Shown piece after piece: positions 4,071 through 60,722 of a stretch of DNA of 64,000 bases. The notes under the pieces were generated by a model that made no database searches, was not told where the DNA came from, and saw nothing but the letters and a program-made list of their open reading frames with translations. Within the stretch, counting starts at the first letter, position 1. Each line of letters opens with the position of its first letter. This DNA is from an uncultured Gammaproteobacteria bacterium (lineage in GTDB: Bacteria > Patescibacteriota > Patescibacteriia > JACPL01 > CAZRYK01), in contig CAZRYK010000002.1 of NCBI GenBank assembly GCA_964604315.1, forward strand, positions 267 to 64,266. Direction: 5' to 3'. The position numbers and the translations under genes were made by a program.

Positions 4071-4146
4071 GTACAGCAGTCAGCCGTCAGCTGACAGAAA
4101 ATAAAAAATGTTTTAAACACTGACCACTGTCTACTGACAGCTGATT
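4071..4146. repeat. intergenic palindrome-rich element, copy 1: GTCAGCTGAC blocks flanking AAAAATGTTTTAAA
   Basis: Contains ...cagcagtcagccGTCAGCTGACAgaaaatAAAAAATGTTTTAAAcactgaccactgtctaCTGACAGCTGa... Composition is shared with 18624-18700. It sits in the divergent tyrS/PBP promoter region. Confidence 0.45.
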
Positions 4147-7321: not shown

Positions 7322-7329
7322 GATGACTA

Positions 7330-7428
7330 GCTGTAAGTAGTAAGTAATAAGCGGTAAGTAAGGGGTAAGTAACCTTTAAGAAATACTTATTACTTACAGC
7401 TTACTACTTATTACTGCTTAATCGGCAT
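7330..7428. repeat. long imperfect hairpin built from GTAAGTA / TTACTTAC units (GTAAGTA-rich repeat family)
   Basis: gctgtaagtagtaagtaataagcggtaagtaaggggtaagtaacc ... tacttattacttacagcttactacttattactgctta. Arms are reverse-complementary with imperfections. Related copies occur at 19014-19110 and 60590-60660. Confidence 0.6.
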
Positions 7429-8517
7429 CACAATATATACATACCCTTCCGAGTCTACGGGTTTAATCAGGCCCGGGCTGGAATGATCGACAAATTGTAA
7501 CTGAATGTCGGAAGTGGGCATATTTAGCAAGCCATCCAATAAATAGCGATGGTTAAACACAATCGACAACGCCGCGCCGGTTATTTCTGGGTGGAGCGTA
7601 ATGGTATTTTCCCCAATTTGCGCATTGGACGATGAAACAATGCAGGTTTTGTTTTCCGGTTGTAAGTCCAACACCACGTCGTTAATTCCGGACTTCGAGA
7701 ACAAACTGGCGGTTTTAATGGTTTTTACTAATTCATCGCGCGAAATGGTCATGGTTGCTGTCGCATTTTTAGGAATAATTTGCTCATAATCCGGATAATG
7801 TCCTTCAATCAAGCGCGACACAAACTGAATATCGTCAACATAAAAGACAATTTGATTCTCTGTCACTTCCACACGCACGTCGTTCTCCGCCGCGTCGGGC
7901 AACAACCGCAATAACTCTTGCCATGCGCGCCCGGGCACAATCACTTTCCCTTCTTGGGCCGGACTTTGCGTAATGGCTATTTTGCGTTCCGCTAAACGGT
8001 AACTATCGGTTGCGGCACAAATAAGCTGATTGCCGGAAAACCGCAAAAAGACTCCGCTAATTTCTGGCCGGGTTTCATCAAAAGCCACAGCAAAAGCGGT
8101 TTCCGCAACAGCAGATTTTAACTCCCCGGCATTCAAATGGAATTGATTCCCGTTTTGCACATCGGGTAGAACCGGAAATTCTTCGGTGGGTTGGCCCTTT
8201 AACACGGTATGAAAATTTTCGCATTGAACTTTTAATTCTGAACCACTGGAGGACAAATCGACTTTTTGATGCGGAAGTAAAGTTACGTAATCACTTAAAA
8301 GCCGCGCTGGAACGGTAATTTCTCCTTCTTCCTCTACTTTGCCACGCACAAAACATTTGACGCCCATTTCTAAGTTCGTCGACAATAATTCACAACCCGA
8401 CGCTGTTGCACGTAACAATAAATTATTTAAAATCGGTAAGCTGGTATTCTTCCCCGCAAGATGTGATGTTAATTGAATACCTCGTGAAAGATTTTCTTGT
8501 GTGCAAGATAGTTTCAT
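7411..8517 (-). CDS. dnaN: DNA polymerase III beta sliding clamp
   Basis: 368 aa with a three-domain clamp-like profile, immediately downstream of dnaA. Confidence 0.9.
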   Translation of the reverse strand: MKLSCTQENLSRGIQLTSHLAGKNTSLPILNNLLLRATASGCELLSTNLEMGVKCFVRGKVEEEGEITVPARLLSDYVTLLPHQKVDLSSSGSELKVQCENFHTVLKGQPTEEFPVLPDVQNGNQFHLNAGELKSAVAETAFAVAFDETRPEISGVFLRFSGNQLICAATDSYRLAERKIAITQSPAQEGKVIVPGRAWQELLRLLPDAAENDVRVEVTENQIVFYVDDIQFVSRLIEGHYPDYEQIIPKNATATMTISRDELVKTIKTASLFSKSGINDVVLDLQPENKTCIVSSSNAQIGENTITLHPEITGAALSIVFNHRYLLDGLLNMPTSDIQLQFVDHSSPGLIKPVDSEGYVYIVMPIKQ

Positions 8518-8777: not shown

Positions 8778-10166
8778 TTAAGAATGGTAAATTTTTTGAC
8801 GCAACGAGACAATGTCTTGTTTAATGCGCTCGTCTTTGTGAACGTATTCTTCCATTTTGGTGCATGCATGCATGGCGGTGGTATGATCGCGTCCGCCAAA
8901 CTCGCGGCCAATGCTGGGGTAACTGCTATTCATTTCCGCGCGCATTAAATACATGGCGATTTGCCGCGGAATCACCAATTCTTTTTTGCGGCTTCCTCCG
9001 GTGATCTCCTCAATAGTGATATCAAAAAACACCGACACCACTTCAATGATCCGTTTAGGTGTAATGGCGCCGCGTTGCCCGTTTTGCACCGCGCTTCCTA
9101 AGATTTCTTTGGCCTGCTCCAGGTCAATATTGATTCTTTTTAAGTCGCGAAAGGCCGAGAGCTTGTTCAGCGCGCCCTCTAGCTCGCGGATGTTGCTTTG
9201 GATATTTTCCGCAATATAATGCAAGACATCTTCCTGGAATTCTACGCCCCATTCTTGGCACTTTTTTTCAATAATCGCCATGCGGGTTTCGAATTCCGGA
9301 ACCGAAATGTCGGCGATCATGCCCCATTGGAATCGCGACACCAAACGATCTTCCAACGCCGGAATCGCCTTGGGCGGCCGGTCAGACGTTAAAATAATTT
9401 GTTTATCGGCTTGGTGCAGGGTATTAAACGTGTGGAAAAACTCTTCTTGCGTGCCTTCTTTTCCGGAAATAAACTGAATATCGTCAATTAAGAGCACGTC
9501 CACATTACGGTAGCGTTTTTTGAAATTTTCACTTTGCCCCTCTTGCACGGATTTAATAAATTCATTGGTGAATCGTTCGCTGGTAACATAGACCACGCGC
9601 GCTTTAGGGTAGTGGCGCTGAATTTCGTGGCCCACCGCTTGCATAATATGGGTTTTCCCCAACCCCACACCACCATAAATAAAAAGCGGGTTATACACTG
9701 TGCCCGGACTTTTAACAACCGCCATACACGCGGCCCGCGCCAATTCATTGTTTTTGCCCACAATAAAGTTGTCGAACGTGTATTTGGGGTTGAGGCCACC
9801 GGAAGACATTTGTGGAGCAATAATGGCATCCATAGAGGGCGAAGGTTGAGGGTTGAGTATTTGTTGTTGAATCGTTGCGGGGTTTTGCACAGGCGTGCGT
9901 GCCGCATCCACACTTTTTTTCGTTGCCACACGGTAGGTAATCTTCAAAACCGCTAATCCTGTCACACTTTGCAATGCTCGAGTGATCTCTTTATGGTATT
10001 TTTGCTCCAACCACGACATGGTAAAGGTGTTGGGGCAGGCAATGACCACGTTCGCGTCTTCGTGAACATCAACAAACGTGTTTTTAAACCACGTTGTGAA
10101 GTTCGCTTTACTCAAAGAGAGCTCCAGTTCGCCCAATACTGCTTGCCACAGTTGATCTCTTTCCAT
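8778..10166 (-). CDS. dnaA: chromosomal replication initiator DnaA
   Basis: AAA+ Walker A GVGLGKTH plus the domain IV DNA-binding region. The start is taken at the internal Met (MERDQLW, ATG at 10166). The longer track ORF would run over the DnaA boxes. Confidence 0.9.
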   Translation of the reverse strand: MERDQLWQAVLGELELSLSKANFTTWFKNTFVDVHEDANVVIACPNTFTMSWLEQKYHKEITRALQSVTGLAVLKITYRVATKKSVDAARTPVQNPATIQQQILNPQPSPSMDAIIAPQMSSGGLNPKYTFDNFIVGKNNELARAACMAVVKSPGTVYNPLFIYGGVGLGKTHIMQAVGHEIQRHYPKARVVYVTSERFTNEFIKSVQEGQSENFKKRYRNVDVLLIDDIQFISGKEGTQEEFFHTFNTLHQADKQIILTSDRPPKAIPALEDRLVSRFQWGMIADISVPEFETRMAIIEKKCQEWGVEFQEDVLHYIAENIQSNIRELEGALNKLSAFRDLKRINIDLEQAKEILGSAVQNGQRGAITPKRIIEVVSVFFDITIEEITGGSRKKELVIPRQIAMYLMRAEMNSSYPSIGREFGGRDHTTAMHACTKMEEYVHKDERIKQDIVSLRQKIYHS

Positions 10167-10221
10167 AGTTTCCTTAGTTTTTTTACCAAAGGAATTATTG
10201 CGTGGAACTATCATAGCACAA

Positions 10222-10278
10222 TTATCCACAGGTGGAAATTTTATACCCATTGTGGATTTGTGTACATCTTGTGGATAA
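10222..10278. promoter_or_regulatory. cluster of DnaA boxes; oriC candidate upstream of dnaA
   Basis: Perfect TTATCCACA at 10222-10230, TGTGGAT at 10251-10257, and perfect TGTGGATAA (reverse complement) at 10270-10278. Confidence 0.6.
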
Positions 10279-10677: not shown

Positions 10678-11004
10678 ATGTTGCCCCGCAAACATCGCTT
10701 AGCTAAAGTTCGCGATTTTGCGCACCTTAAAGAGACGGGTAAAACTCGACGGACGCGATTTTTCACCGTAAGGTATACAAAAACCGAGCAAAAGGATTCG
10801 CGTGTGGCAGTGATTGTCTCGGCTAAGGTTAGCAAAAAGGCTGTTGAGCGCAATAAACTTAAGCGACGGTTGCGAAACATTCTTTCCAAACGATTGCGGG
10901 ACTTGCCCAAACACACCGATGTGGCGTTTTATGCCCACGGTTCCGCAAGCAAAGCGACATTCTCGGACATTGAAGCAGATATTGAACAACTTTTGAACGG
11001 CTAG
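10678..11004 (+). CDS. rnpA: ribonuclease P protein component
   Basis: Basic 108-aa protein directly after rpmH, in the conserved gene order. Confidence 0.85.
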   Translation: MLPRKHRLAKVRDFAHLKETGKTRRTRFFTVRYTKTEQKDSRVAVIVSAKVSKKAVERNKLKRRLRNILSKRLRDLPKHTDVAFYAHGSASKATFSDIEADIEQLLNG

Positions 11005-11006
11005 AG

Positions 11007-11255
11007 ATGCGTTTTATTCTCCTCTATCTTATACGGGCCTACCAAAAAACCCTTTCCCCGGATCATTCTTGGGTTGCGTTTTACTATCCTTTTGGAGTCT
11101 GCGCTTTTCGGCCAACGTGCTCGGAATATAGCTATGACGCGATTCTTGCCCATGGCGTATGGAAGGGTCTAGCCATGACGGCACACCGCGTTTTGCGCTG
11201 TCACCCGGGGGTAAAACCCACCTATGATCCCGTCACTTTAACAAAAAAATCCTAA
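11007..11255 (+). CDS. yidD: membrane protein insertion efficiency factor YidD
   Basis: CAFRPTCSEY motif, in the conserved position between rnpA and yidC. Confidence 0.85.
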   Translation: MRFILLYLIRAYQKTLSPDHSWVAFYYPFGVCAFRPTCSEYSYDAILAHGVWKGLAMTAHRVLRCHPGVKPTYDPVTLTKKS

Positions 11256-11256
11256 T

Positions 11257-12042
11257 ATGGGCGAATTTTTCAACACTATTCTTTACGAGCCGCTTTTTAA
11301 TGCCCTCATCTTTTTTTACGACGTGATTCCGGGTACAGACATGGGTATTGCCATTATTCTTCTGACGCTCATTATTAAATTATTGCTGTTCCAGCCGTCG
11401 CTATCGTCTTTAAAAGCGCAAAAATCCTTGCAAGATTTACAGCCAAAATTGCGCGAAGTTCAGGAAAAATATAAGGACAATCGTGAAGAGTTAGGCAAAA
11501 AAACCATTGAAGTTTACCGCACGCATAAGGTCAATCCGTTTTCTTCGTGCCTCCCTATTTTAATACAACTGCCGATTTTGTGGGTCTTGTACCGCGTGTT
11601 TTTTAATGGCATCGAGCTAGACGCAACGAGCGGGCTTTTAATGCCCAACCAAGTCGAGCATCTTTATGGCTATTTGCAGGCAAAATATGCTACACAGCCG
11701 ATTGATTCCACGTTTTTAGGCCTGGTGGATTTATCGGCGACCGGTAATGTTGTTTTGGCCGTTCTAGCCGGGGCTTTGCAGTTTTGGCAAACACGCATGT
11801 TACAGAGAACGCGGCCAAAAGTGCAGACCAAAGGCTCAAAGGACGAGGATTTGATGGCTAATATGAACCGGCAGATGCTCTACGTGATGCCGATTATTAC
11901 GGTCATTTTTGGCTATCAGTTTCCGGCCGGCCTTGCTTTATATTGGACGGTCAACATTTTGTATAGCATTGCCCAGCAATGGTTTTTCTTAAGAAAAGGC
12001 CATATTTCTGGACCTCCGCAAGAAAAACCCCAGACACCATAA
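11257..12042 (+). CDS. yidC: YidC/Oxa1-family membrane protein insertase (short form)
   Basis: Multi-TM 261-aa protein after yidD, in the conserved operon. Confidence 0.8.
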   Translation: MGEFFNTILYEPLFNALIFFYDVIPGTDMGIAIILLTLIIKLLLFQPSLSSLKAQKSLQDLQPKLREVQEKYKDNREELGKKTIEVYRTHKVNPFSSCLPILIQLPILWVLYRVFFNGIELDATSGLLMPNQVEHLYGYLQAKYATQPIDSTFLGLVDLSATGNVVLAVLAGALQFWQTRMLQRTRPKVQTKGSKDEDLMANMNRQMLYVMPIITVIFGYQFPAGLALYWTVNILYSIAQQWFFLRKGHISGPPQEKPQTP

Positions 12043-12341: not shown

Positions 12342-12369
12342 GGATCCGACCCTTCCAAGGGTCGGATCC
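12342..12369. terminator. REP-family hairpin GGATCCGACCCT-TCCA-AGGGTCGGATCC, terminator-like, after the yidC operon
   Basis: Perfect 12-bp inverted repeat. It belongs to the GGATCCGACC family seen at six sites in the window. Confidence 0.6.
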
Positions 12370-12713
12370 TGATTAGTTTATTTGCAGACCACTGTTCTTC
12401 CGCTTGTTTACCTTCCGTCTTGAGCTTTTGTTATTGGACTGATATACTGCTTTTGCACTTAACTATTGTTTTATGGACATTGAAAACAATCAAGCCGTAT
12501 TGCGCCGGCATGTGGCTGGAACCTTAATCCTCACCACGCTTTTAATTGTTGGGCTTTTTGCTGTTTGGTACCTTGATCAAGGTAGTCAGACGGTCTCTAG
12601 TCCCATAGTGGAGTTCTATCGCTGGCTTCTATAGTTGTACGACGCTATAATATAGCTAATATTAGTTATAATATTCTGACACTCGCGTTTGACAGATACT
12701 TGTCTGGCGATCG

Positions 12714-12785
12714 GTCCCTATAGTTCAACGGATAGAACAAAGGACTCCTAAGCCTTAGATGCTGGTTCAATTCCCGCTAGGGACA
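12714..12785 (+). tRNA. tRNA-Arg (anticodon CCT)
   Basis: Hand-folded cloverleaf: acceptor GTCCCTA/TAGGGAC, D-stem GTTC/GAAC, anticodon loop CTCCTAA with U33 and A37, T-loop TTCAATT. There is one A-G mismatch at 31-39. Confidence 0.6.
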
Positions 12786-12812
12786 CACAAACTTTGCTCA
12801 CGCAAAGTTTGT

Positions 12813-12942
12813 GTAATGAGTAATTCGTAGTTGGCCTGCCCGCCATTGCCTGCGGCTTCAGGCCTTGGCAGGCGGGTACTTAGCGCAAGGTAAAATTTCC
12901 TTAAAATCATCTAAGCAAAGTTTACCCCCAACTACTCAATAC
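12813..12942. repeat. MITE-like element, copy 1 (TIR GTAATGAGTA...), carrying a nested 45-bp GC-rich A-type repeat
   Basis: The core TTAGCGCAAGGTAAAATTTCCTTAAAATCATCTAAGCAAAGTTTACCCCCAACTACTCAATAC is about 80% identical to 57331-57400. The inserted segment CCTGCCCGCCATTGCCTGCGGCTTCAGGCCTTGGCAGGCGGGTAC recurs at 13207-13251. Confidence 0.55.
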
Positions 12943-12954
12943 CCACACAAAGTA

Positions 12955-13030
12955 CAAAATGTTCCCCGTCCGCCATCGGCTCCGCCTTCAGGCGTGCCGG
13001 GCGGGCACATGGAACGTTTTGTACACTAAC
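12955..13030. repeat. B-type GC-rich repeat with terminal inverted repeats AAAATGTTCC / GGAACGTTTT, copy 1
   Basis: acaaaatgttccccgtccgccatcggctccgccttcaggcgtgccgggcgggcacatggaacgttttgt. Nearly identical to 13826-13895 and about 70% similar to the A-type repeat. Confidence 0.55.
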
Positions 13031-13083
13031 TAATGAATTCAATCAGTGATTGATACTAGGGTCGTAGCTTTACTGCGACAAGA

Positions 13084-13156
13084 GGGCCTGTAGCTCATCT
13101 GGTAGAGCGCGGCATTCGCATTGCCGAGGCAAGCGGTTCGAGTCCGCTCAGGTCCA
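13084..13156 (+). tRNA. tRNA-Ala (anticodon CGC)
   Basis: Cloverleaf with acceptor GGGCCTG/CAGGTCC including the G3:U70 alanine identity pair, anticodon loop TTCGCAT, and T-loop TTCGAGT. Confidence 0.8.
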
Positions 13157-13194
13157 CGTAAATTTTTGCTAGCGCAATAATTTGAGTCTCGCGT

Positions 13195-13290
13195 TGTTAG
13201 TAATTTGCCTGCCCGCCATTGCCTGCGGCTTCAGGCGTTGGCAGGCGGGTACTTTGCGCAATGAGTGTTCCACGTGGAACACTCCAGATA
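13195..13290. repeat. A-type GC-rich repeat, copy 2, followed by the perfect 18-bp palindrome GTGTTCCACGTGGAACAC
   Basis: CCTGCCCGCCATTGCCTGCGGCTTCAGGCGTTGGCAGGCGGGTAC matches 12835-12879 with one mismatch. The palindrome lies at 13269-13286. Confidence 0.55.
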
Positions 13291-13294
13291 AATT

Positions 13295-13669
13295 ATGGAT
13301 TACAGTATCGAAAAAATTCAGCAAATTGTTCGGGAATTTGCAAAGTCTAGAAATTGGGAAGATTACCCGAATATTGACAAATTCGACCATGTTCACGAGG
13401 AGCTTATTGAAGTAAGCCAGTATTTGCGGTATAAATCTCGTGAAGAAATGGAAGGATTTCTGTCTGACCCAAAGAATAAGGCGCTTATTGAGGAAGAAAT
13501 GGGCGATGTCCTATTTGTCTTTGCGCGCCTGGCTAATCAATTAAACATTGATTTGGGTAAAGGGTTTGAAACAACCGTAGCGAAAGTCCTAAAAAAGTTC
13601 CCTGAAACTGCAGGAAAAAGTGAGTACAATCCGGTTTGGAAAGGCGACAAGCCTGGAAATAAGGAATAA
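13295..13669 (+). CDS. MazG-like nucleotide pyrophosphohydrolase domain protein
   Basis: HEELIEV and EEEMGDVLF acidic EExxE motifs of the MazG/NTP-PPase fold. The gene is embedded in the tRNA/repeat cluster. Confidence 0.55.
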   Translation: MDYSIEKIQQIVREFAKSRNWEDYPNIDKFDHVHEELIEVSQYLRYKSREEMEGFLSDPKNKALIEEEMGDVLFVFARLANQLNIDLGKGFETTVAKVLKKFPETAGKSEYNPVWKGDKPGNKE

Positions 13670-13725
13670 GTTTCCAAAATGTTCCACCACGTACCATACG
13701 GTACATGGTTCCACGTGGAACATTT

Positions 13726-13799
13726 GGGCGGCTAGCTCAGCTGGTTAGAGCGTTGCATTCACATTGCAAAGGTCACAAGTTCGAATCTTGTGCCGCCCA
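13726..13799 (+). tRNA. tRNA-Val (anticodon CAC)
   Basis: Cloverleaf with acceptor GGGCGGC/GCCGCCC, anticodon stem-loop TTGCA-TTCACAT-TGCAA, and T-loop TTCGAAT. It is preceded by the palindrome GTTCCACGTGGAAC at 13709-13722. Confidence 0.8.
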
Positions 13800-13825
13800 C
13801 GTAAATTTTACTCACACAAATGACA

Positions 13826-13895
13826 AAATGTTCCCCGTCCGCCATCGGCTTCGCCTTCAGGCGTGCCGGGCGGGCACATGGAACATTTTATTGTA
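13826..13895. repeat. B-type GC-rich repeat, copy 2
   Basis: gacaaaatgttccccgtccgccatcggcttcgccttcaggcgtgccgggcgggcacatggaacatttta, near-identical to 12955-13030. Confidence 0.55.
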
Positions 13896-18623: not shown

Positions 18624-18700
18624 AACAGCTGTCAGCAGACAGTTGTCAGGAATGCAAAAATATTTTAAATCCTGGCTGACTTACTGTCAGCTGACTGCTG
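18624..18700. repeat. intergenic palindrome-rich element, copy 2: ACAGCTGTCAGCAGACAG ... AAAAATATTTTAAA ... CTGTCAGCTGAC
   Basis: Same architecture as 4071-4146: CAGCTG / GTCAGCTGAC blocks around an AAAAATRTTTTAAA centre. It lies immediately upstream of cutA. Confidence 0.45.
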
Positions 18701-18710
18701 AAGTTTACAT

Positions 18711-19013
18711 ATGATTTTCATCGTCACCACCATTCAGACCAAAGAGCAAGCAGAGACGCTCATTAATTTGTTGTTAGAGAAAAAACTCGTTGCTTGCGCC
18801 GGGTATTTTCCCATTCAATCGCTCTACACCTGGAAAGGTGAAAAACATACGAACGATGAATACCGCATAGAGATGGAAACGCGGGACGAACTATATGATG
18901 ATGTAGAAAAAGTCCTGCGCGAGCATCACCCGTACGAAGAGCCGGTTATTTTGTCGTGGAGCGTGCGTACCGATGAAGGAACCGAAAAGTGGGTTGATGA
19001 CGTAACAGCGTGA
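18711..19013 (+). CDS. cutA: divalent-cation tolerance protein CutA
   Basis: 100-aa CutA1-like sequence (VTTIQTKEQAE...KLVACAG...YEEPV). Confidence 0.75.
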   Translation: MIFIVTTIQTKEQAETLINLLLEKKLVACAGYFPIQSLYTWKGEKHTNDEYRIEMETRDELYDDVEKVLREHHPYEEPVILSWSVRTDEGTEKWVDDVTA

Positions 19014-19110
19014 AAGTAGCAGTAAGCGGTAAGTAATAAGTAGTAACTAAGATTTATAAATTTTATTTCTACTACTTACTGCTTACAGCTTATTACTTAC
19101 TGCTAATTCA
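19014..19110. repeat. GTAAGTA-rich long hairpin (AGTAGCAGTAAGCGGTAAGTAATAAGTAGTAA ... TACTACTTACTGCTTACAGCTTATTACTTACTGCT)
   Basis: Imperfect inverted repeat about 35 bp per arm with an AT-rich loop. Same family as 7330-7428. Confidence 0.6.
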
Positions 19111-19455
19111 ATGCCCCACAACTTCTACGATCTTATTTACGAGAATATTAAGAGGATTCCACGAGGGAAGGTGGCGACGTACGGCCAAATTGCGGCGCTT
19201 TGCGGCAACCCCATGGGCGCGCGTTTGGTCGGTTGGGCGTTGAATGCTTTAAATAATGTGGGGCCGTCAACCACAGTTCCGTGGCAACGCGTTATTAATC
19301 GCGAGGGCCGAATTTCGATTGTGAATAAAAATGCAAGCAAAGATTTACAGGCAGATATCTTGCGCAACGAAGGCATAGACGTACAATTCCGTGATGGCAA
19401 TTATTGGGTTGATCTGTCGCGGTATTTGTGGCGTCCTTATAATGGCAAGAGCTAA
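19111..19455 (+). CDS. alkyltransferase-like (ATL) protein: MGMT-fold DNA-binding domain lacking the acceptor cysteine
   Basis: ATYGQIA...VPWQRVIN aligns to the O6-alkylguanine-DNA alkyltransferase PCHRV motif with Trp replacing Cys, the ATL hallmark. Single-domain, 114 aa. Confidence 0.65.
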   Translation: MPHNFYDLIYENIKRIPRGKVATYGQIAALCGNPMGARLVGWALNALNNVGPSTTVPWQRVINREGRISIVNKNASKDLQADILRNEGIDVQFRDGNYWVDLSRYLWRPYNGKS

Positions 19456-19461
19456 GCTCTT
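19441..19461 (+). terminator. hairpin GGCAAGAGC-TAA-GCTCTTGCC spanning the ATL stop codon
   Basis: Perfect 9-bp stem, read directly. Same family as the hairpins at 49484-49527 and 55318-55338. Confidence 0.5.
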
Positions 19462-19610
19462 GCCATAAGATTGATGCTTTCGCGCAATCGGAAAATACGC
19501 TATACTATATCTTATGGAGAAAAAGGAGGCAGTGTTACTTCCCCGCGACGTAATGTATAACAGTATGTTGTTTTCTTCATTTTAAAAAATTATTTTTTAA
19601 GCAAAACTTT

Positions 19611-23564: not shown

Positions 23565-23584
23565 TAATAAAGTAAACGAACAAA

Positions 23585-23612
23585 GGGATCCGACCTCTGG
23601 AGGTCGGATCCC
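23585..23612 (+). terminator. REP-family hairpin GGGATCCGACCTC...GAGGTCGGATCCC after the large surface-protein gene
   Basis: Perfect inverted repeat containing GGATCCGACC, 20 nt after the stop codon. Confidence 0.6.
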
Positions 23613-23656
23613 TTCGCGAGATGCGTTGGCGTCTCGTTTTGTGGTATAATTGATAC

Positions 23657-24251: not shown

Positions 24252-24614
24252 ATGTATGACAAAAAATCCATTGGCCGCTTAGGCGAAGAATTGGCAGAAC
24301 GCTTTTTGCAACGCAAGGGCTACACGATTATAGAAAAAAACTTTCACACGCGGTTTGGAGAAATCGATATTGTGGCGCGCCAAAATTCTGCATTTATTTT
24401 TGTCGAGGTGAAAACGCGGACATCAACGTTCTTTGGTTCGCCGGAGGAATCCATTACGCCGTATAAACAAGAACGGTGGAAGAAAAGTGTCTGGGTCTAT
24501 TGCCAAACAAAAAACCTTCACCACAAACATTTGCAATTCGACGTGATTGCCATTTTACTCAACCGCGCAACCCGCACCGCCACTCTGCGACATTTTAAGA
24601 ATATTGAGATATGA
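24252..24614 (+). CDS. yraN: YraN-family (UPF0102) endonuclease
   Basis: GEELAERFLQRKGY...GEIDIVA...VEVKTR signature. The last 18 codons lie in a 52-bp sequence duplicated at 25830-25884. Confidence 0.8.
   Translation: MYDKKSIGRLGEELAERFLQRKGYTIIEKNFHTRFGEIDIVARQNSAFIFVEVKTRTSTFFGSPEESITPYKQERWKKSVWVYCQTKNLHHKHLQFDVIAILLNRATRTATLRHFKNIEI
24560..24614 (+). repeat. direct repeat copy 1 (AACCGCGCAACCCGCACCGCCACTCTGCGACATTTTAAGAATATTGAGATAT)
   Basis: 52-bp stretch identical to 25833-25884. A partial third copy (GACATTTTAAGAATATTGA) is at 30378-30396. Confidence 0.8.
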
Positions 24615-25829: not shown

Positions 25830-25884
25830 CAACCGCGCAACCCGCACCGCCACTCTGCGACATTTTAAGAATATTGAGATATAA
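25830..25884 (+). repeat. direct repeat copy 2 (duplicate of the yraN 3' end)
   Basis: Identical 52 bp, including a pseudo C-terminal coding sequence ...NRATRTATLRHFKNIEI. Confidence 0.8.
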
Positions 25885-30265: not shown

Positions 30266-30408
30266 AAATCTAAAAAGGTGGAGCGCCAGTTTTATTGGCA
30301 CGAAATTTGGCGGCAAAGGGTGCGCGAGCGGAATTGTGTAATTCCACGATGGTAACATGGAGGGAACCCCTACCGCCGTGACATTTTAAGAATATTGAAA
30401 TTAGATTA

Positions 30409-36627: not shown

Positions 36628-36634
36628 TTTAAAA

Positions 36635-36677
36635 GGGATCCGACCTCTAGAGATCCGACCCCTCTGGGGGTCGGATC
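36635..36677. repeat. REP-family element flanking the transposase 3' end: GGGATCCGACC-TCTAGA-GATCCGACCCC-TCTG-GGGGTCGGATC
   Basis: Direct repeat of GATCCGACC plus an 11-bp perfect hairpin. The RAYT stop codon and last 9 codons lie inside it. Confidence 0.7.
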
Positions 36678-37267
36678 TTGTTTTTGGCATTTTGAAAAAA
36701 GTGAAGATAATCAGGTGGCTCATCGGCCGCAGTATAACGCGACAAAATATCAAAGATTATTTTTGTCTCTATCCATGGTTGTTGCTCGTGAATGTACGCA
36801 TGAATACTTGAATAGGGGTAGGTTAATGGATCCGCGCCAATGTCACGAGGGTTGAGATGAATGTATCGTGTTAAATGAAGAAGATATTCATCTGACGGGA
36901 CAAGAATTGCCTTATATTTCTTTCCGAAGAGCGAGCCATCATGTTGATATTTTTTCTTATAATAAATCGTGTAAGCAGAAATCAAAGATTGCATAAAATG
37001 TGGGAGTGCGCGTTCTTGAGTTTGTTGTAGGGCTATATGATAGTGATTTGGCATCAGAGAAAGACTAATAATTTTAATGAGTCCAAAAAAGTTTTTTCTG
37101 TAGAGCATGGCGTCTGGCTCTGGTTGTGTTACAGCAGATTTTAGGAGATGGTAAAACATTCGGAAATCTTCTTCGTCGCGACAGATGTCATTTTTATCGT
37201 AACCGCGATTAAAAACATGGTAATAGCCATCTTTAACAAATGATCGAATATGGTATTTACTTGGCAT
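36647..37267 (-). mobile_element. IS200-like Y1 HUH transposase gene (PF01797 fold), resembling REP-associated tyrosine transposases (RAYT)
   Basis: 206 aa with YHVFNRG near the N-terminus, the HUH motif in MPNHYHIAL, and the catalytic-Tyr region LTRYIHLNP. A single gene with no tnpB, bracketed by REP hairpins. Confidence 0.7.
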
Positions 37268-37333
37268 ATAAAAATAGGGCGTGTTCGTAGAACGCCCATA
37301 AAACTATATTAGCATGAAAGAATATTTGGTACA

Positions 37334-37361
37334 AGGGATCCGACCTCCAGAGGTCGGATCC
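37334..37361. repeat. REP-family hairpin GGGATCCGACCT-CCAG-AGGTCGGATCCC flanking the transposase 5' side
   Basis: Perfect 12-bp inverted repeat, 67 nt upstream of the RAYT start. Confidence 0.7.
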
Positions 37362-37439
37362 CTCTGGGATTTGTTTTTGGCCGCGGGGCGGGGGTTGGTA
37401 GGATTTCTCCACCTTCCCCCTCCCCGCGTTGCGGGCCGT

Positions 37440-37631: not shown

Positions 37632-37955
37632 GTCGTTTCTCCGAAACGAAAAAGGCCTCTTGCTCCCGCACGCGGGAACAACAAGCCTTTTGTGAAGCTT
37701 TAATTCTCCAGTAATGCCGACTGTCGGCTCCGGAGCGCATCCCCGCGGGGGACTTCTTTTACCACCTTACCGCTTCACTATGCGGGCAGGTTGGCGGGAC
37801 GTCACTGGGCGAAGTAGCCCTACGTCCTCTCTTAATGCTGTCTTTTCGAAGATCTAAAGACATCTTAACCAACCCCCCTTCTTTTGTCAAACATTGTTCG
37901 CCGCTGGAAGAATTGATAGAATAAAGTAGTAAATAAATATTTTGTAGCGATCGGA

Positions 37956-45704: not shown

Positions 45705-46016
45705 GCCGGGGTGGTGAAATTGGTATACACGAGGGACTTTAACAATATGAGCACCGGTTGCGGAAACGCTCCGTGTGAATGAGGTCAAATTCGGGGAAGC
45801 CCTGACGTCACGTCGAGGTAATCCCGAGCCAATCCCCGTACCGTACGGTGCAGGGCAGGTGTAGAGACTTAACGGCCTCCTCCTACGTGTCACAAGCATA
45901 TGGAGAAGAGAGAGTCCAGACTACGAACCACGTAAAAAGCGTGGGCGATGAAAATCGAAGTAGTATGAAAATCCCTTGGGAGCAATCCCGTGCGGGTTCG
46001 AGTCCCGCCCTCGGCA
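45705..46016 (+). tRNA. tRNA-Leu (anticodon UAA) interrupted by a 228-nt group I intron between U34 and A35
   Basis: 5' exon GCCGGGGTGGTGAAATTGGTATACACGAGGGACTT (3-bp D-stem and long D-loop typical of type II tRNAs). 3' exon AAAATCCCT + TGGGAGCAATCCCGT (long variable arm) + GCGGGTTCGAGTCCCGC + CCTCGGC + A. The exons only form a cloverleaf once 45740-45967 is removed. Confidence 0.8.
45740..45967 (+). ncRNA. group I self-splicing intron in the tRNA-Leu(UAA) anticodon loop
   Basis: Inserted at the canonical U34/A35 site used by cyanobacterial/plastid tRNA-Leu(UAA) introns. It follows an exon U, ends in G (omega-G), and contains the P7-like CAGACTACG and GGGAAGCCCTGACG core-like segments. Confidence 0.7.
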
Positions 46017-46141
46017 CATCTTAAAATAACCCAGCGACCGGAATCCAACAAAAAACTTACTAGCATCTCCATTCTCACTAAAGATATTTGTATAAATTTG
46101 TACAGAGAAAATCAATATAAATTTGTTTATCATAATATTTT

Positions 46142-49468: not shown

Positions 49469-49483
49469 GCGGCTGTGAGCGAT

Positions 49484-49527
49484 TTGGCAAGAGCTTAGCT
49501 CTTGCCTAAATACGGCAAAAGCTTAGC
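49484..49527. terminator. tandem hairpins GGCAAGAGCTTAGCTCTTGCC and GGCAAAAGCTTAGCTTTGGCC
   Basis: Two adjacent 9-bp-stem hairpins between convergent or serial minus-strand genes. Same family as 19441-19461 and 55318-55338. Confidence 0.5.
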
Positions 49528-49544
49528 TTTGGCCAAAAAATGCC

Positions 49545-55266: not shown

Positions 55267-55317
55267 CCAAATCGGCCCCATCTAAGCAATTAGGTGGGGC
55301 CGGGAGATTTAGAATTT

Positions 55318-55365
55318 GGCAAAAGCTTAGTTTTGGCCAATTGTCAAACACCGAGTGTTTGACAA
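55318..55365. terminator. convergent terminator pair: GGCAAAAGCTTAGTTTTGGCC and TTGTCAAACAC-CGA-GTGTTTGACAA
   Basis: Two perfect hairpins between the plus-strand small ORF and the minus-strand RNase J gene. Confidence 0.55.
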
Positions 55366-57141: not shown

Positions 57142-57200
57142 AAAATATACTCCGTTATTTTTTTAAATAAGGCGGCCATACGGCGCGCTTGAAATAGTTG

Positions 57201-57284
57201 TGGGGATGGGGAGATTTGAACTCCCACGAGGTTGCCCTCACTAGCTCCTGAAGCTAGCGTGTATGCCAGTTTCACCACATCCCC
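57201..57284 (-). tRNA. tRNA-Leu (anticodon CAG)
   Basis: Reverse complement folds as GGGGATG-TG-GTG-AAACTGGCATA-CAC-G-CTAGC-TTCAGGA-GCTAG-TGAGGGCAACCTCGT-GGGAG-TTCAAAT-CTCCC-CATCCCC-A. It is a type II tRNA with a long variable arm. Confidence 0.85.
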
Positions 57285-57322
57285 GTAAACTTTGCTTCGC
57301 AAAGTTTGAGTCTTGAGTATTT

Positions 57323-57417
57323 AGTAATGAGTACTTAGCGCAAGGTAGAATTTTTTAAAATCATCTAGCAAAGTTTTCCCCAAACTACCAACTACTAATT
57401 ACGAACTACTCATTACT
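57323..57417. repeat. MITE-like element, copy 2, with terminal inverted repeats AGTAATGAGTA / TACTCATTACT
   Basis: Core about 80% identical to 12880-12942. Like copy 1 it abuts a tRNA gene and an AAACTTTGC...GCAAAGTTT hairpin. Confidence 0.55.
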
Positions 57418-59206
57418 GATTCCATTCCCAGTGACGCGACGTTTCAATATACCAATCGCCGATGGTCGAGAACCGATCGGACAAAATATTAATCGACCCG
57501 CCATCGATCCCTTTCACCTCGTTGTGAACAGGGTAGGTGTACGTTGGATTATAAAGGAAGATTGCCGGAAGTTCGTCAGCCAAAATATTTTGGAAGTGCA
57601 GGTACTTTAATTGGCGTTGTTCCGCGTTGTCGGTTTGGCGTGCTTCTTCCAACAACTGATCGACTTGCTTGTTGAAAAACACGGCCAAGTTCAACCCCGG
57701 GTCGCGGTTCTGCGACGAATGCCAGAATGGGTAGGGGTCCGGGTCGGCGCCGACAATTTCTCCAAACAGTAACGCTTCATACTGGCGCGGGGCAATGACC
57801 TTTTTTTGAATATCCTTTGCCGAATAGATTTTTAATTCCACGCGCACGCCGACAGCTTCCCAATATTTTTTAATAAGTTCCACGGACGACACATATTCTT
57901 CTTGATCCAAAGTAGATAAAGAAAGCGCAAGTTCCACACCATCTTTTTGCCGCACCGGTTGCGCCGGTGGTTCGCTTCCTTTAGCAACGGCCGGAAACAC
58001 CCAACCTTTATCGTTCAAGAAATTACTAGCAAGCGTGGGGTCGTAGTTGTATTTGCGTACCTCTGGGTTATAACCAATCGAGCCGGGTAAAATAGGCGCA
58101 TGGATAATCTGACCCTCATGGTTCAGCGCTTGGTTAAGGATCTCTTCTTTGTTAATGGCCAGGGCTAAAGCCTCGCGCACCTCGGCGTTTTTGAGCAAGG
58201 AGTTGGTTTGGTTAAAAAAGATGGCGGTATATTGCGGCAGGCTGAAGGTATGGAAGTTCACGTCCGAACGTTGTTCTTCAATGGCCGCGCGGTTCGACGC
58301 TGAAATAAAACTTAAACCTTCAATATTTTTGTCTTGCAGAGCCATAACCGCGGTGTCGAGGTCGGGGTAAAATTTGAGCGTGAGTTCTTCAATATGCGGT
58401 TTGGCGCCATAGTATTGTGCATGCGGTATTAACGTGACGGATTTAATAAAACCCGATGGGTCTTTTTTTAACTCTTTGAACGCATACGGGCCAGAGCCAA
58501 TGGGCTTAAGGTTTAATTCCACCAGCCGGGCGTTTTCTGGCAAAACGTCTATCCACAAATATTCCGGCAAAATGCCGAACGTGAGGTTGTTCAAAAACGG
58601 GGCGTAGGGTTCTTTAAGCGTAAAGCTGATGGTAAAATCGTCCACGCGTTGAACATCGACTTCGGAAAAATTGCTGCGCAACGGGCTTGCGTATAACGGA
58701 TCTTGAATGAGCCCAACGGTAAAAAGGACATCGTCTGCGGTGAGTTGCTGCGGTTCGCTATCGTCGCTCATGCGGTGGAAGAAAACTCCTTGACGCATTT
58801 TAATGGTATACGTTTTTTTGTCTTCGGAAATGGTATGGCTTTCGGCAATGTCGGGTGTTAAGCCTTCTTGCGCATCTTCTTCAAACAGCCGTGAGTACAC
58901 CAACGTGACCATGTCTTGGTCTGCATCGTTGGTTGCGGCATAGAGCGGGTTCATCCACTTGGGCGTGCCAATAATGCCTTCGGTGTATTTTCCGCCATCG
59001 GCCGGAGTGTAAGTAATATGGCCTTGGTACGCGCGAACCAGAGTTGCGCCAAGCGAAAGCAGGAACACCGCAAAAAACACTCGGAACAGTAAGCGCTCCT
59101 TCTTGGAAAGATAATCGTTCACATAGCGGATTTGTTGAAGGCGGGGTATGCGGCGACTGCGTTGGTGTTGGGGGGTGAGAATGCGAGAATGATTATTGAT
59201 TTGCAC
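57413..59206 (-). CDS. ABC-type oligopeptide/dipeptide substrate-binding protein (family 5, OppA/DppA-like)
   Basis: 597 aa with an N-terminal TM anchor. Size and periplasmic fold are typical of SBP family 5. Confidence 0.7.
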   Translation of the reverse strand: MQINNHSRILTPQHQRSRRIPRLQQIRYVNDYLSKKERLLFRVFFAVFLLSLGATLVRAYQGHITYTPADGGKYTEGIIGTPKWMNPLYAATNDADQDMVTLVYSRLFEEDAQEGLTPDIAESHTISEDKKTYTIKMRQGVFFHRMSDDSEPQQLTADDVLFTVGLIQDPLYASPLRSNFSEVDVQRVDDFTISFTLKEPYAPFLNNLTFGILPEYLWIDVLPENARLVELNLKPIGSGPYAFKELKKDPSGFIKSVTLIPHAQYYGAKPHIEELTLKFYPDLDTAVMALQDKNIEGLSFISASNRAAIEEQRSDVNFHTFSLPQYTAIFFNQTNSLLKNAEVREALALAINKEEILNQALNHEGQIIHAPILPGSIGYNPEVRKYNYDPTLASNFLNDKGWVFPAVAKGSEPPAQPVRQKDGVELALSLSTLDQEEYVSSVELIKKYWEAVGVRVELKIYSAKDIQKKVIAPRQYEALLFGEIVGADPDPYPFWHSSQNRDPGLNLAVFFNKQVDQLLEEARQTDNAEQRQLKYLHFQNILADELPAIFLYNPTYTYPVHNEVKGIDGGSINILSDRFSTIGDWYIETSRHWEWNQ

Positions 59207-59554: not shown

Positions 59555-59588
59555 GGATCCGACCCTGGCACGTATTTGGGTCGGATCC
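59555..59588. repeat. REP-family hairpin GGATCCGACCC-(12 nt)-GGGTCGGATCC
   Basis: Perfect 11-bp inverted repeat downstream of secG. Confidence 0.6.
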
Positions 59589-59688
59589 TGATTGCTGGTT
59601 TATTCTTCAATTGCCCCCGGGGCAACATTTGAAAAAAATGCACATAGGTATATAATTCCTTCAGATTATACTTCTTTGTAATCACTGC

Positions 59689-60589: not shown

Positions 60590-60722
60590 CTCGGGTCAGT
60601 TGTAAGTAATAAGGGTTAAGGGGTAAGTATTTTCTCCTATCTCACGTATCTTATCCCTTAAACCTTACTGCCCGTTGACAAAGGAAATTATATAGTATAT
60701 AATTCATACTATATTATATACT

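Follow-up and report, generated by a model that had tools for sequence, protein, structure and literature searches.

Four copies of a GC-rich imperfect palindrome of 41-43 nt, hereafter termed the core, lie among the transfer RNA (tRNA) genes near the replication origin of an uncultured bacterium placed by GTDB in the Patescibacteriota, within a 64,000-nucleotide stretch of its contig CAZRYK010000002.1 (assembly GCA_964604315.1, positions 267 to 64,266 of the forward strand; this whole stretch is called the window). The same core recurs almost unchanged in genomes of several phyla, is present in or missing from otherwise matching DNA at two kinds of site, and stands in frame inside protein-coding genes of Patescibacteria, whilst in the tRNA cluster of the window it splits two palindromes of the parS type. 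It is probably a non-autonomous selfish palindrome, akin to repetitive extragenic palindromes (REPs) and Rickettsia palindromic elements (RPEs), that is mobilised in trans.

Four copies of one repeat family

A covariance model built from 34 distinct core copies was searched against the 64 kb with filters off and returned four copies only, all on the plus strand and scoring 55-65 bits. Two of these are of the type designated A, namely A1 (12835-12876, 42 nt, CCTGCCCGCC...GGCAGGCGGG; 55.4 bits by cmsearch), which folds at -31.6 kcal/mol and is missing from a paralogous site at 57323, and A2 (13208-13249, 42 nt; 60.7 bits, fold z=-4.3), which is 1 nt off A1 and is embedded in flanks (13181-13261) homologous to those of A1. 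The remaining two, of type B, are 41 nt long and are found at 12965-13005 (B1) and 13834-13874 (B2; 64.8 bits). The 24-mer CCGCCATYGSCTNCGSCTTCAGGC is invariant in all four copies (4 matches vs 0 expected in 64 kb), and AAAATGTTCC has 4 occurrences where 0.39 would be expected.

The consensus of the core reads CCTGCCCGCC-ATYGSCTNCGSCTTCAGGCG-N1-4-GGCRGGCGGG over 41-43 nt. Each copy folds as a two-step GC-rich hairpin made up of an outer stem of 10 bp, an asymmetric interior that is conserved, and an inner stem of 4-6 bp, with the mismatches of the outer stem, one U·G and one C·A, likewise conserved. The A and B cores differ in 9 of 42 alignment columns, close to the similarity of about 70% estimated in a first-pass annotation made from the letters alone, and the suggestion made there that A and B represent one diverging repeat family is borne out, given that both match a single covariance model. 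Beyond the core, flanks are common to the A pair and likewise to the B pair, in the form of 81-nt repeats with 85-94% identity.

Distribution of the core in other genomes

An exact scan for the 24-mer, covering one genome per species and fixing by its pattern 24 nt of the 5' half, found at least 115 stretches carrying it; among the matches listed, about 107-113, depending on the filter applied, are complete hairpins with distinct flanks. Four candidate copies (L010, L013, L049 and L077) were discarded: they are without the 3' arm and represent chance matches to the 24-mer within coding DNA rich in GC. The majority of the listed copies belong to Desulfobacterota, whose genomes may each hold many or even dozens of them in unrelated contexts, and the core was also detected in ten metagenome-assembled genomes (MAGs) of Patescibacteria, in Elusimicrobia, a UBA9087 MAG, Aminicenantes and others. 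It is carried by the closed chromosomes CP070735, CP070843 and CP070660 and occurs at two distinct loci on viral contigs. With so many other genomic copies, the repeats are not unique to the locus in which they were noticed.

The resemblance between hosts is very close. B2 is distinguished from a Syntrophobacteria copy in L017 by a 2-nt indel alone, A2 is 1 nt different from copies in L005 and L096, and the commonest 41-mer is 100% identical in 71 distinct flank contexts; conservation falls abruptly at either end, the flank bias beyond the core in these contexts being limited to G|core|TC. The near-identity across phyla extends to unpaired loop bases.

Copies are mostly single per 8 kb, without arrays. 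According to crude open reading frame (ORF) calls, 42 lie between tandem genes, 7 between convergent and 3 between divergent ones, and those in tandem contexts show no preference of orientation (17 sense vs 25 antisense). Nesting is frequent, another arm being present within 60 nt in 15 of 107 copies against a background of about 1%. Insertion into palindrome centres was considered as a general rule and rejected, the flank complementarity of 4.88 being matched by a null of 4.86 in a shuffled control, although copies do nest in one another and in parS. Only 2 of 118 outside copies, among the matches listed, lie within 500 bp of a tRNA gene, and a relative of the window (L126) has the same tRNA cluster with no copy at all; the proposal of the first-pass annotation that the repeat family targets tRNA-flanking DNA is therefore not supported. 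A literature search for the core DNA, its 14-mers and its peptides retrieved nothing relevant.

As a separate observation, unrelated GC-rich hairpins were seen inserted inside core copies, or beside the core in fmt (L063 2397-2441, L058 321-361 and L094 about 395-560), and it seems that in these genomes small hairpins of several families nest within each other.

Filled and empty sites

Copy A1 resides in a larger host element (12811-12945, plus strand) with 7-nt-periodic arms (TAATGAG TAATTCG TAGTTGG ... CCAACTAC) that is homologous to 57308-57417. When 57278-57430 was aligned with 12780-12965, the sole gap region proved to be exactly the 42-nt A core. The segment 57285-57417 (plus strand), which lies 5' of the minus-strand gene for tRNA-Leu(CAG), is hence an empty-site paralogue of 12787-12945, with the same hairpin and the same 7-nt-periodic arms and without the core. 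That a larger element, with a second copy beside tRNA-Leu, encloses one of the A copies had been recognised earlier, and it can now be added that this second copy is devoid of the core. The hairpin of the element has a 9-bp stem (AAACTTTGC-TCAC-GCAAAGTTT) and was located by pattern search at 12789-12810, 3 nt past tRNA-Arg, and at 57287-57307 (2 matches, 0 expected). It had been described as directly following tRNA genes at both loci, which is correct for tRNA-Arg and incorrect for tRNA-Leu, where the gene runs on the minus strand and the hairpin is 5' of it.

The second kind of filled and empty site is genic. Patescibacteria copies stand in frame within long ORFs encoding DnaX, GatB, NusA, NusB, a Clp ATPase, Fmt, a CCG-domain oxidoreductase and a glycosyltransferase. 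Five of the in-frame genic copies use one frame, yielding ..PEGEA(D/N)GGQA.., and the core segment of GatB forms an extra loop when aligned to solved GatB structures. The DnaX protein P0121 carries 14 residues (TCPPLPAASGAGRR), and orthologues at 90-92% identity are without exactly those residues; at the level of DNA, the filled dnaX of L096 and the empty ones of L252 and L253 differ by exactly 42 nt.

Hairpins with tandem 7-nt-periodic arms, of the AGTAAGT/ATAAGCG and CTGACAG types, were observed elsewhere in the window at 4080-4143, 7328-7415, 18626-18701, 19003-19108 and 60597-60631, besides 12811-12834 and 57308-57417. Arrays of the same period flank the core in many other phyla, exemplified by ATTGTTG on both sides in L116 and by CTAGTGC arrays in Syntrophobacterales, and the 7-nt period places stop codons in all three frames. 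The literature on heptanucleotide repeats and palindromic elements supplied background only.

parS palindromes beside the origin and their interruption

The palindrome GTTCCACGTGGAAC is present at 13267-13280 and 13708-13721, the first occurrence spanning 13265-13282 in full, so that the perfect palindromes reported earlier at 13265-13282 and 13708-13721 are both there. As a 16-bp unit it fits the TGTTNCACGTGAAACA-type parS consensus. The intact site TGTTCCACGTGGAACA at 13266-13281, 13 nt upstream of the MazG start codon, is identical in 16/16 positions to parS2/3 of P. aeruginosa (PMC4368675), and the site at 13707-13722 agrees with TGTTCCACGTGGAACA in 15/16. TGTTCCACGTGGAACA is furthermore within one base of the M. 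xanthus parS consensus, which was shown there to bind ParB (PMC4368675, PMC3899335). Judged by their sequence, the GTTCCACGTGGAAC palindromes are chromosomal centromere parS sites beside oriC. A DnaA box was considered for the palindrome and dismissed, canonical TTATCCACA boxes being found elsewhere in the window and the palindrome matching parS exactly.

The position of the cluster accords with this assignment. The genes dnaN (7411-8517, minus) and dnaA (8778-10250, minus), perfect DnaA boxes at 10222 and 10270, rnpA-yidD-yidC (10678-12042) and the minimum of the cumulative GC skew at 10-12 kb are all at hand, and the positions of dnaA, the DnaA boxes and the skew minimum place the cluster 2.5-3.6 kb from the origin, where parS is expected.

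Two of the four parS-like sites of the cluster are split by the core after TGTTC. In the B1 composite (12956-13020, plus strand; TGTTC|CACATGGAACG, with A/T-run flanks) the result is a long hairpin (fold -46.1 kcal/mol, z=-7.75), and in the B2 composite (13825-13889, plus strand; TGTTC|CACATGGAACA) a hairpin arises likewise (fold -37.5 kcal/mol, z=-5.5); after each of them comes TTTT. Once the core is taken out, the flanks join to give TGTTCCACATGGAACG in B1 and TGTTCCACATGGAACA in B2. The B repeat had been taken for an element bounded by terminal inverted repeats; these supposed repeats are two half-sites of a parS-like palindrome, separated by the core, and that description has to be abandoned. 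The split sites of B1 and B2 would presumably have lost ParB binding. The remaining site, at 13680-13722, is composed of TGTTCCAC, a 20-nt hairpin (13688-13707) and GTTCCACGTGGAACA, and from this arrangement it looks as though a different small hairpin had been inserted into parS with a 7-nt duplication, the 15/16 site at 13707-13722 being what was left.

More than 120 metagenome stretches, drawn from many biomes, contain the 18-mer ATGTTCCACGTGGAACAT, which also occurs twice in L126, on either side of a PCC-domain gene where MazG sits in the window. The slot between paired parS sites looks variable, housing a MazG-like protein here (13266-13722) and a PCC-domain protein at the equivalent place in L126 (7825-8301). 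It was also observed that ATGTTCCACGTGGAACAT is frequently found as the tip of a longer hairpin (L132-L251; compare 12956-13020, 13676-13725 and 13825-13889 of the window), that the flanks extend its palindrome by at least 5 bp in 17 of 126 distinct sites (0.12 expected), and that several of these hairpins are followed by T-runs in the manner of intrinsic terminators, for example in L201, L203 and L221.

Proposed mobilisation of the core

As a REP/RPE-like palindrome, the core, which has sharp ends and no coding content, would be copied to fresh positions, in many cases with a short duplication at its flanks. It would land between genes, in the loops of copies already present, in parS palindromes and in essential genes, the last of these being entered as an exact 42-nt (14-codon) unit. 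Within the window, A1 and A2 would have been placed in a larger hairpin element with 7-nt-periodic arms, and B1 and B2 in parS-like sites after TGTTC, whereby the sites were presumably split and very stable hairpins with T-runs created. Movement would proceed as DNA through a trans-acting enzyme, the leading guess for which is a single-strand, hairpin-recognising activity of the HUH/tyrosine type. Recognition of a folded single strand, as in REP with its associated tyrosine transposase (RAYT) and in IS200/IS605, is suggested by the combination of conserved mismatches, conserved unpaired interior and sharp ends.

Flanking direct repeats are enriched around the copies, the mean longest common word being 4.01 vs 3.16 (sd 0.09), and 37 copies have a flanking common word of at least 5 nt where about 10 are expected, an enrichment which overstates the number of independent events because many such copies are paralogues of the same larger composite. 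This overstatement is one of several points that weigh against the reading of the core as a selfish palindrome. The fixed 24-nt search pattern partly imposes the apparent conservation, and near-identity across phyla could instead reflect a conserved binding site, as for parS. No clear duplication is seen at the DnaX insertion site, and no gene family or transposase is enriched within 1.5 kb of copies in the 8-kb pieces of other genomes or in the 64 kb here. The copy number in the window may be due in part to composite or segmental duplication instead of four separate insertions, as the shared flanks would suggest. Lastly, neither a ParA Walker motif nor a ParB motif (GERRxRA) was found in the 64 kb, and the use of parS here is a prediction.

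A bolder version of the proposal is tentative, and it is put forward with less assurance than the selfish palindrome itself: the core may be an undescribed kind of ultra-small mobile DNA that is spreading, or has recently spread, over at least three phyla (Desulfobacterota, Patescibacteria and Elusimicrobia) by means of a trans-acting mobiliser which is itself horizontally transferred, and that lands in hairpins, in parS and in dnaX, gatB, nusA and nusB of the candidate phyla radiation (CPR).

Alternative explanations

The first-pass annotation had offered, besides a diverging repeat family, a structured RNA with compensatory changes. In the aligned cores 90.5% of stem cells are paired, and no pair is changed on both sides; searches of Rfam, at the gathering threshold and at E<=10, returned only noise over the cores (mir-214 and mir-938, E ~1), and there is no bias of orientation relative to genes, all of which tells against the compensatory-change idea. 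The A/B difference amounts to a switch between two alternative 5' strands that pair with one 3' strand, and is confined to a single subfamily. A related explanation, which is unlikely though the most plausible of the alternatives weighed here, holds that the hairpins are functional RNA of the tRNA operon, acting as terminators or in processing and stabilising 3' ends, and that A and B are kept by selection on RNA structure. A core hairpin does lie 25-50 nt past each tRNA in the same orientation, UUUU comes after the B hairpins, whose stability is very high (-37 to -46 kcal/mol, z -5.5 to -7.8), and REP elements are known as RNA stabilisers or terminators (PMC3733652). The A copies have no such U-run, however, and none of the four copies was flagged by a simple consensus terminator scan, B1 and B2 with their terminal TTTT included. 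Further objections are the scarcity of tRNA neighbours and the mixed orientations elsewhere (2/118 among the matches listed; 17 sense vs 25 antisense), the in-frame copies inside ORFs, the want of compensatory pairs and of an Rfam match, and the persistence of the same tRNA cluster in L126 without these hairpins. From their predicted folds, the B composites, one behind tRNA-Arg/A1 and the other behind tRNA-Val, probably have a secondary role as terminators of the tRNA transcripts, a use that is compatible with a selfish origin of the core as well.

It is improbable, though not outlandish, that the core is instead a conserved chromosomal binding or loading site of a widespread DNA-binding protein, in the fashion of parS, and that its position beside parS near oriC is meaningful. 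This would account for the near-identity across phyla, unpaired loop bases included, and for four copies within 1.1 kb that are interleaved with parS in one orientation some 3 kb from dnaA. It sits poorly with the absence of the core from L126 and three other relatives, the dozens of copies per Desulfobacterota genome in unrelated contexts, the exact presence or absence of 42 nt in DnaX among close orthologues, the nested copies and enriched flanking duplications, and the fact that two copies disrupt parS instead of adjoining it. A gene-cassette system, with MazG as a mobile cassette between attC-like or Xer/dif-like palindromes and with A and B as degenerate recombination sites, is very improbable. 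The same palindrome does stand on both sides of MazG, the pair in L126 encloses another small gene (PCC domain) in the corresponding position, and integron-associated MazG cassettes exist. Against this, the bracketing palindrome is a 16/16 match to a characterised parS and is scattered over more than 120 metagenome stretches of many biomes; no recombinase-like gene was found in the ORF list of 11-16 kb, with Pfam run on four window ORFs, or in the gene tables of two syntenic relatives; and core copies elsewhere are mostly solitary within 8 kb, not arrayed. An integron attC was rejected on its own account, for attC core sites are ordered RYYYAAC...GTTRRRY and the palindrome has the reverse order GTT...AAC, the ends of the core are CCTGCC/GGCGGG, and the palindrome is identified as parS. 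Scarcely credible, finally, is a purely local or artefactual origin, either as tandem segmental duplications unique to the locus or as artefacts of assembly or adapters. The A pair and the B pair do each share flanks past the core (the 81-nt repeats at 85-94% identity), and many copies in other MAGs are near contig ends; against this stand more than 100 copies with unrelated flanks, closed chromosomes among them, variants that differ but retain the hairpin, and genic copies that keep the reading frame. The core matches no sequencing adapter known to us, no adapter database having been searched.

Relation to known systems

The selfish palindrome proposed here is of a kind already known, as is parS. 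The core shares with REP/REPIN sequences the form of a short (20-40 bp in REP; 41-43 nt here) GC-rich imperfect palindrome with conserved mismatches, many dispersed copies that are mostly intergenic, seldom between divergent genes, clustered and nested, and some copies inside genes, replication genes included (PMC3733652). It departs from them in several respects: the Patescibacteria copies are genic, an exception to the extragenic rule; the GTAG/CGTC end tag is missing, the ends being CCTGC... (5') and ...GCGGG (3') with a G/TC flank bias over the 71 contexts; no RAYT-like gene was seen beside core copies in the 8-kb pieces of other genomes or the 64 kb here; an interior of 20 nt, which includes a second small stem, is conserved; and REP families are species-specific, whereas the core hardly differs between Desulfobacterota, Patescibacteria and Elusimicrobia.

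The resemblance to RPEs lies in a selfish palindrome standing in frame in essential protein genes, where it is tolerated as an extra surface peptide, with intergenic and RNA-gene contexts also represented; the 14-codon DnaX insertion, missing in orthologues at 90-92% identity, is a case in point. RPEs are 100-150 bp long and confined to Rickettsia. Measured against this description, the core is set apart by its length of 41-43 nt and by its hosts, Patescibacteria and Desulfobacterota, which span phyla; it is not known to be related to RPEs in sequence and is not counted among them here, for all that it behaves like one. The GC clusters and double-hairpin elements of fungal mitochondria are tiny GC-rich hairpins in a genome of lower G+C that insert in intergenic DNA, in each other and in coding and RNA genes, and we know of no enzyme that mobilises them. 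The core is likewise a very small GC-rich hairpin with intergenic, nested and genic sites; the mitochondrial clusters differ in being organellar and of other sequence, the hosts of the core being free-living or episymbiotic bacteria of several phyla. Like miniature inverted-repeat transposable elements (MITEs), the core is non-coding, has terminal inverted repeats (its arms of 10 nt), is flanked in many of its copies by direct repeats and is known from filled as well as empty sites, and it is unlike them in being far smaller than the typical MITE (about 80-500 bp), in a duplication length that varies from 0 to 10 nt instead of being fixed, and in having no known parent insertion sequence. As for the palindromes of the window, their clustering no more than about 3.5 kb away from dnaA and from the skew minimum is typical for chromosomal parS, from which the case differs in that no parB was found in the 64 kb of the window. 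We know of no description of a parS site interrupted by a 41-nt hairpin after TGTTC, as in B1 and B2.

Three features appear to be undescribed in the searchable literature: how little the core varies from phylum to phylum, its insertion into essential genes of the CPR as units of exactly 14 codons, and the interruption of parS. Repeats of the REP/RPE type are normally lineage-specific, and here one hairpin of 41-43 nt is almost unchanged in Patescibacteria, Desulfobacterota and Elusimicrobia; such sameness would imply either horizontal movement between very different cells that share sediments or groundwater, or a common mobilising enzyme with a strong sequence constraint. The in-frame copies indicate that the reduced genomes of the CPR tolerate selfish insertions in genes for replication, transcription and translation, and the genic copies constitute natural filled/empty pairs for a study of mechanism. 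From the split parS sites near the origin it would seem that bacterial centromeres can be eroded or remodelled by such elements. For annotation, perfect palindromes near an origin such as these are parS and should not be taken for transposon ends.

Layout of the locus and other features of the window

The locus is an origin-proximal tRNA cluster in a chromosome of the Patescibacteria, a CPR lineage, with a ParB-type parS cluster and one small MazG-like gene. It contains, on the plus strand, tRNA-Arg(CCT) at 12714-12786 (ARAGORN; Rfam tRNA, 60.4 bits), tRNA-Ala(CGC) at 13084-13157 and tRNA-Val(CAC) at 13726-13800 (both ARAGORN and Rfam); tRNA-Leu(CAG) is on the minus strand at 57200-57284 (ARAGORN). 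The ORF at 13295-13669 (plus strand) encodes a MazG-like nucleotide pyrophosphohydrolase of 124 aa (Pfam PF03819 MazG, E=1.4e-6), with the two intact parS sites on either side, and an exact look-up of its protein matched no record. All the features listed by the first-pass annotation, that is the three tRNAs, the MazG-like ORF, the A and B repeats, the palindromes and the tRNA-Leu element, were recovered, and none is a chance match.

The relative L126, with a YidC 64% identical, is syntenic over yidC, tRNA-Arg(CCT), tRNA-Val(CAC), tRNA-Ala, trxA and trxB, and neither a core copy nor MazG is present in its tRNA cluster. In three further relatives identified through YidC, synteny does not continue downstream of yidC and no core copy was found; the contig of a 95%-identical relative stops 26 nt past tRNA-Arg and is uninformative on the repeats. 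The spacer between tRNA-Arg and tRNA-Val in L126 (7080-7140) holds two adjacent canonical DnaA boxes (GTGGATAAGTGGATAAC), and part of the L126 origin may lie within its tRNA cluster, unlike in the window, where the perfect boxes are those at 10222 and 10270.

Two other palindrome families were noticed in the window. One is GC-rich, of the form (A)AGGGATCCGACC-NNNN-GGTCGGATCCCTT, with five or six copies (12343-12374, 23580-23618, 36630-36683, 37330-37368 and 59562-59593); the copy at 12342-12369 scores as a terminator, and the family may consist of terminator-type repeats or be a small mobile palindrome. The other, TGGCAAGAGCTNAGCTCTTGCCA, has four copies, two of them adjacent (19439-19466, 49481-49536 and 55313-55340). 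A perfect 53-nt direct repeat occupies 24560-24612 and 25830-25882, 1270 nt apart, and its last 22 nt (GACATTTTAAGAATATTGAGAT) recur at 30380-30401 with 95% identity. A tRNA-Leu(UAA)-like gene at about 45706-46030 (plus strand) has its anticodon loop interrupted by a group I intron (Rfam Intron_gpI, 45729-45935, 50.9 bits); GCCGGGGTGGTGAAATTGGTA...GACTTTAA and AATCCCTTGGGAGC...GGGTTCG can be made out as its exon halves, and it received no ARAGORN call. A SAM-I/IV riboswitch is located at 37690-37843 on the minus strand, with 43.0 bits against an Rfam gathering score of 41.1.

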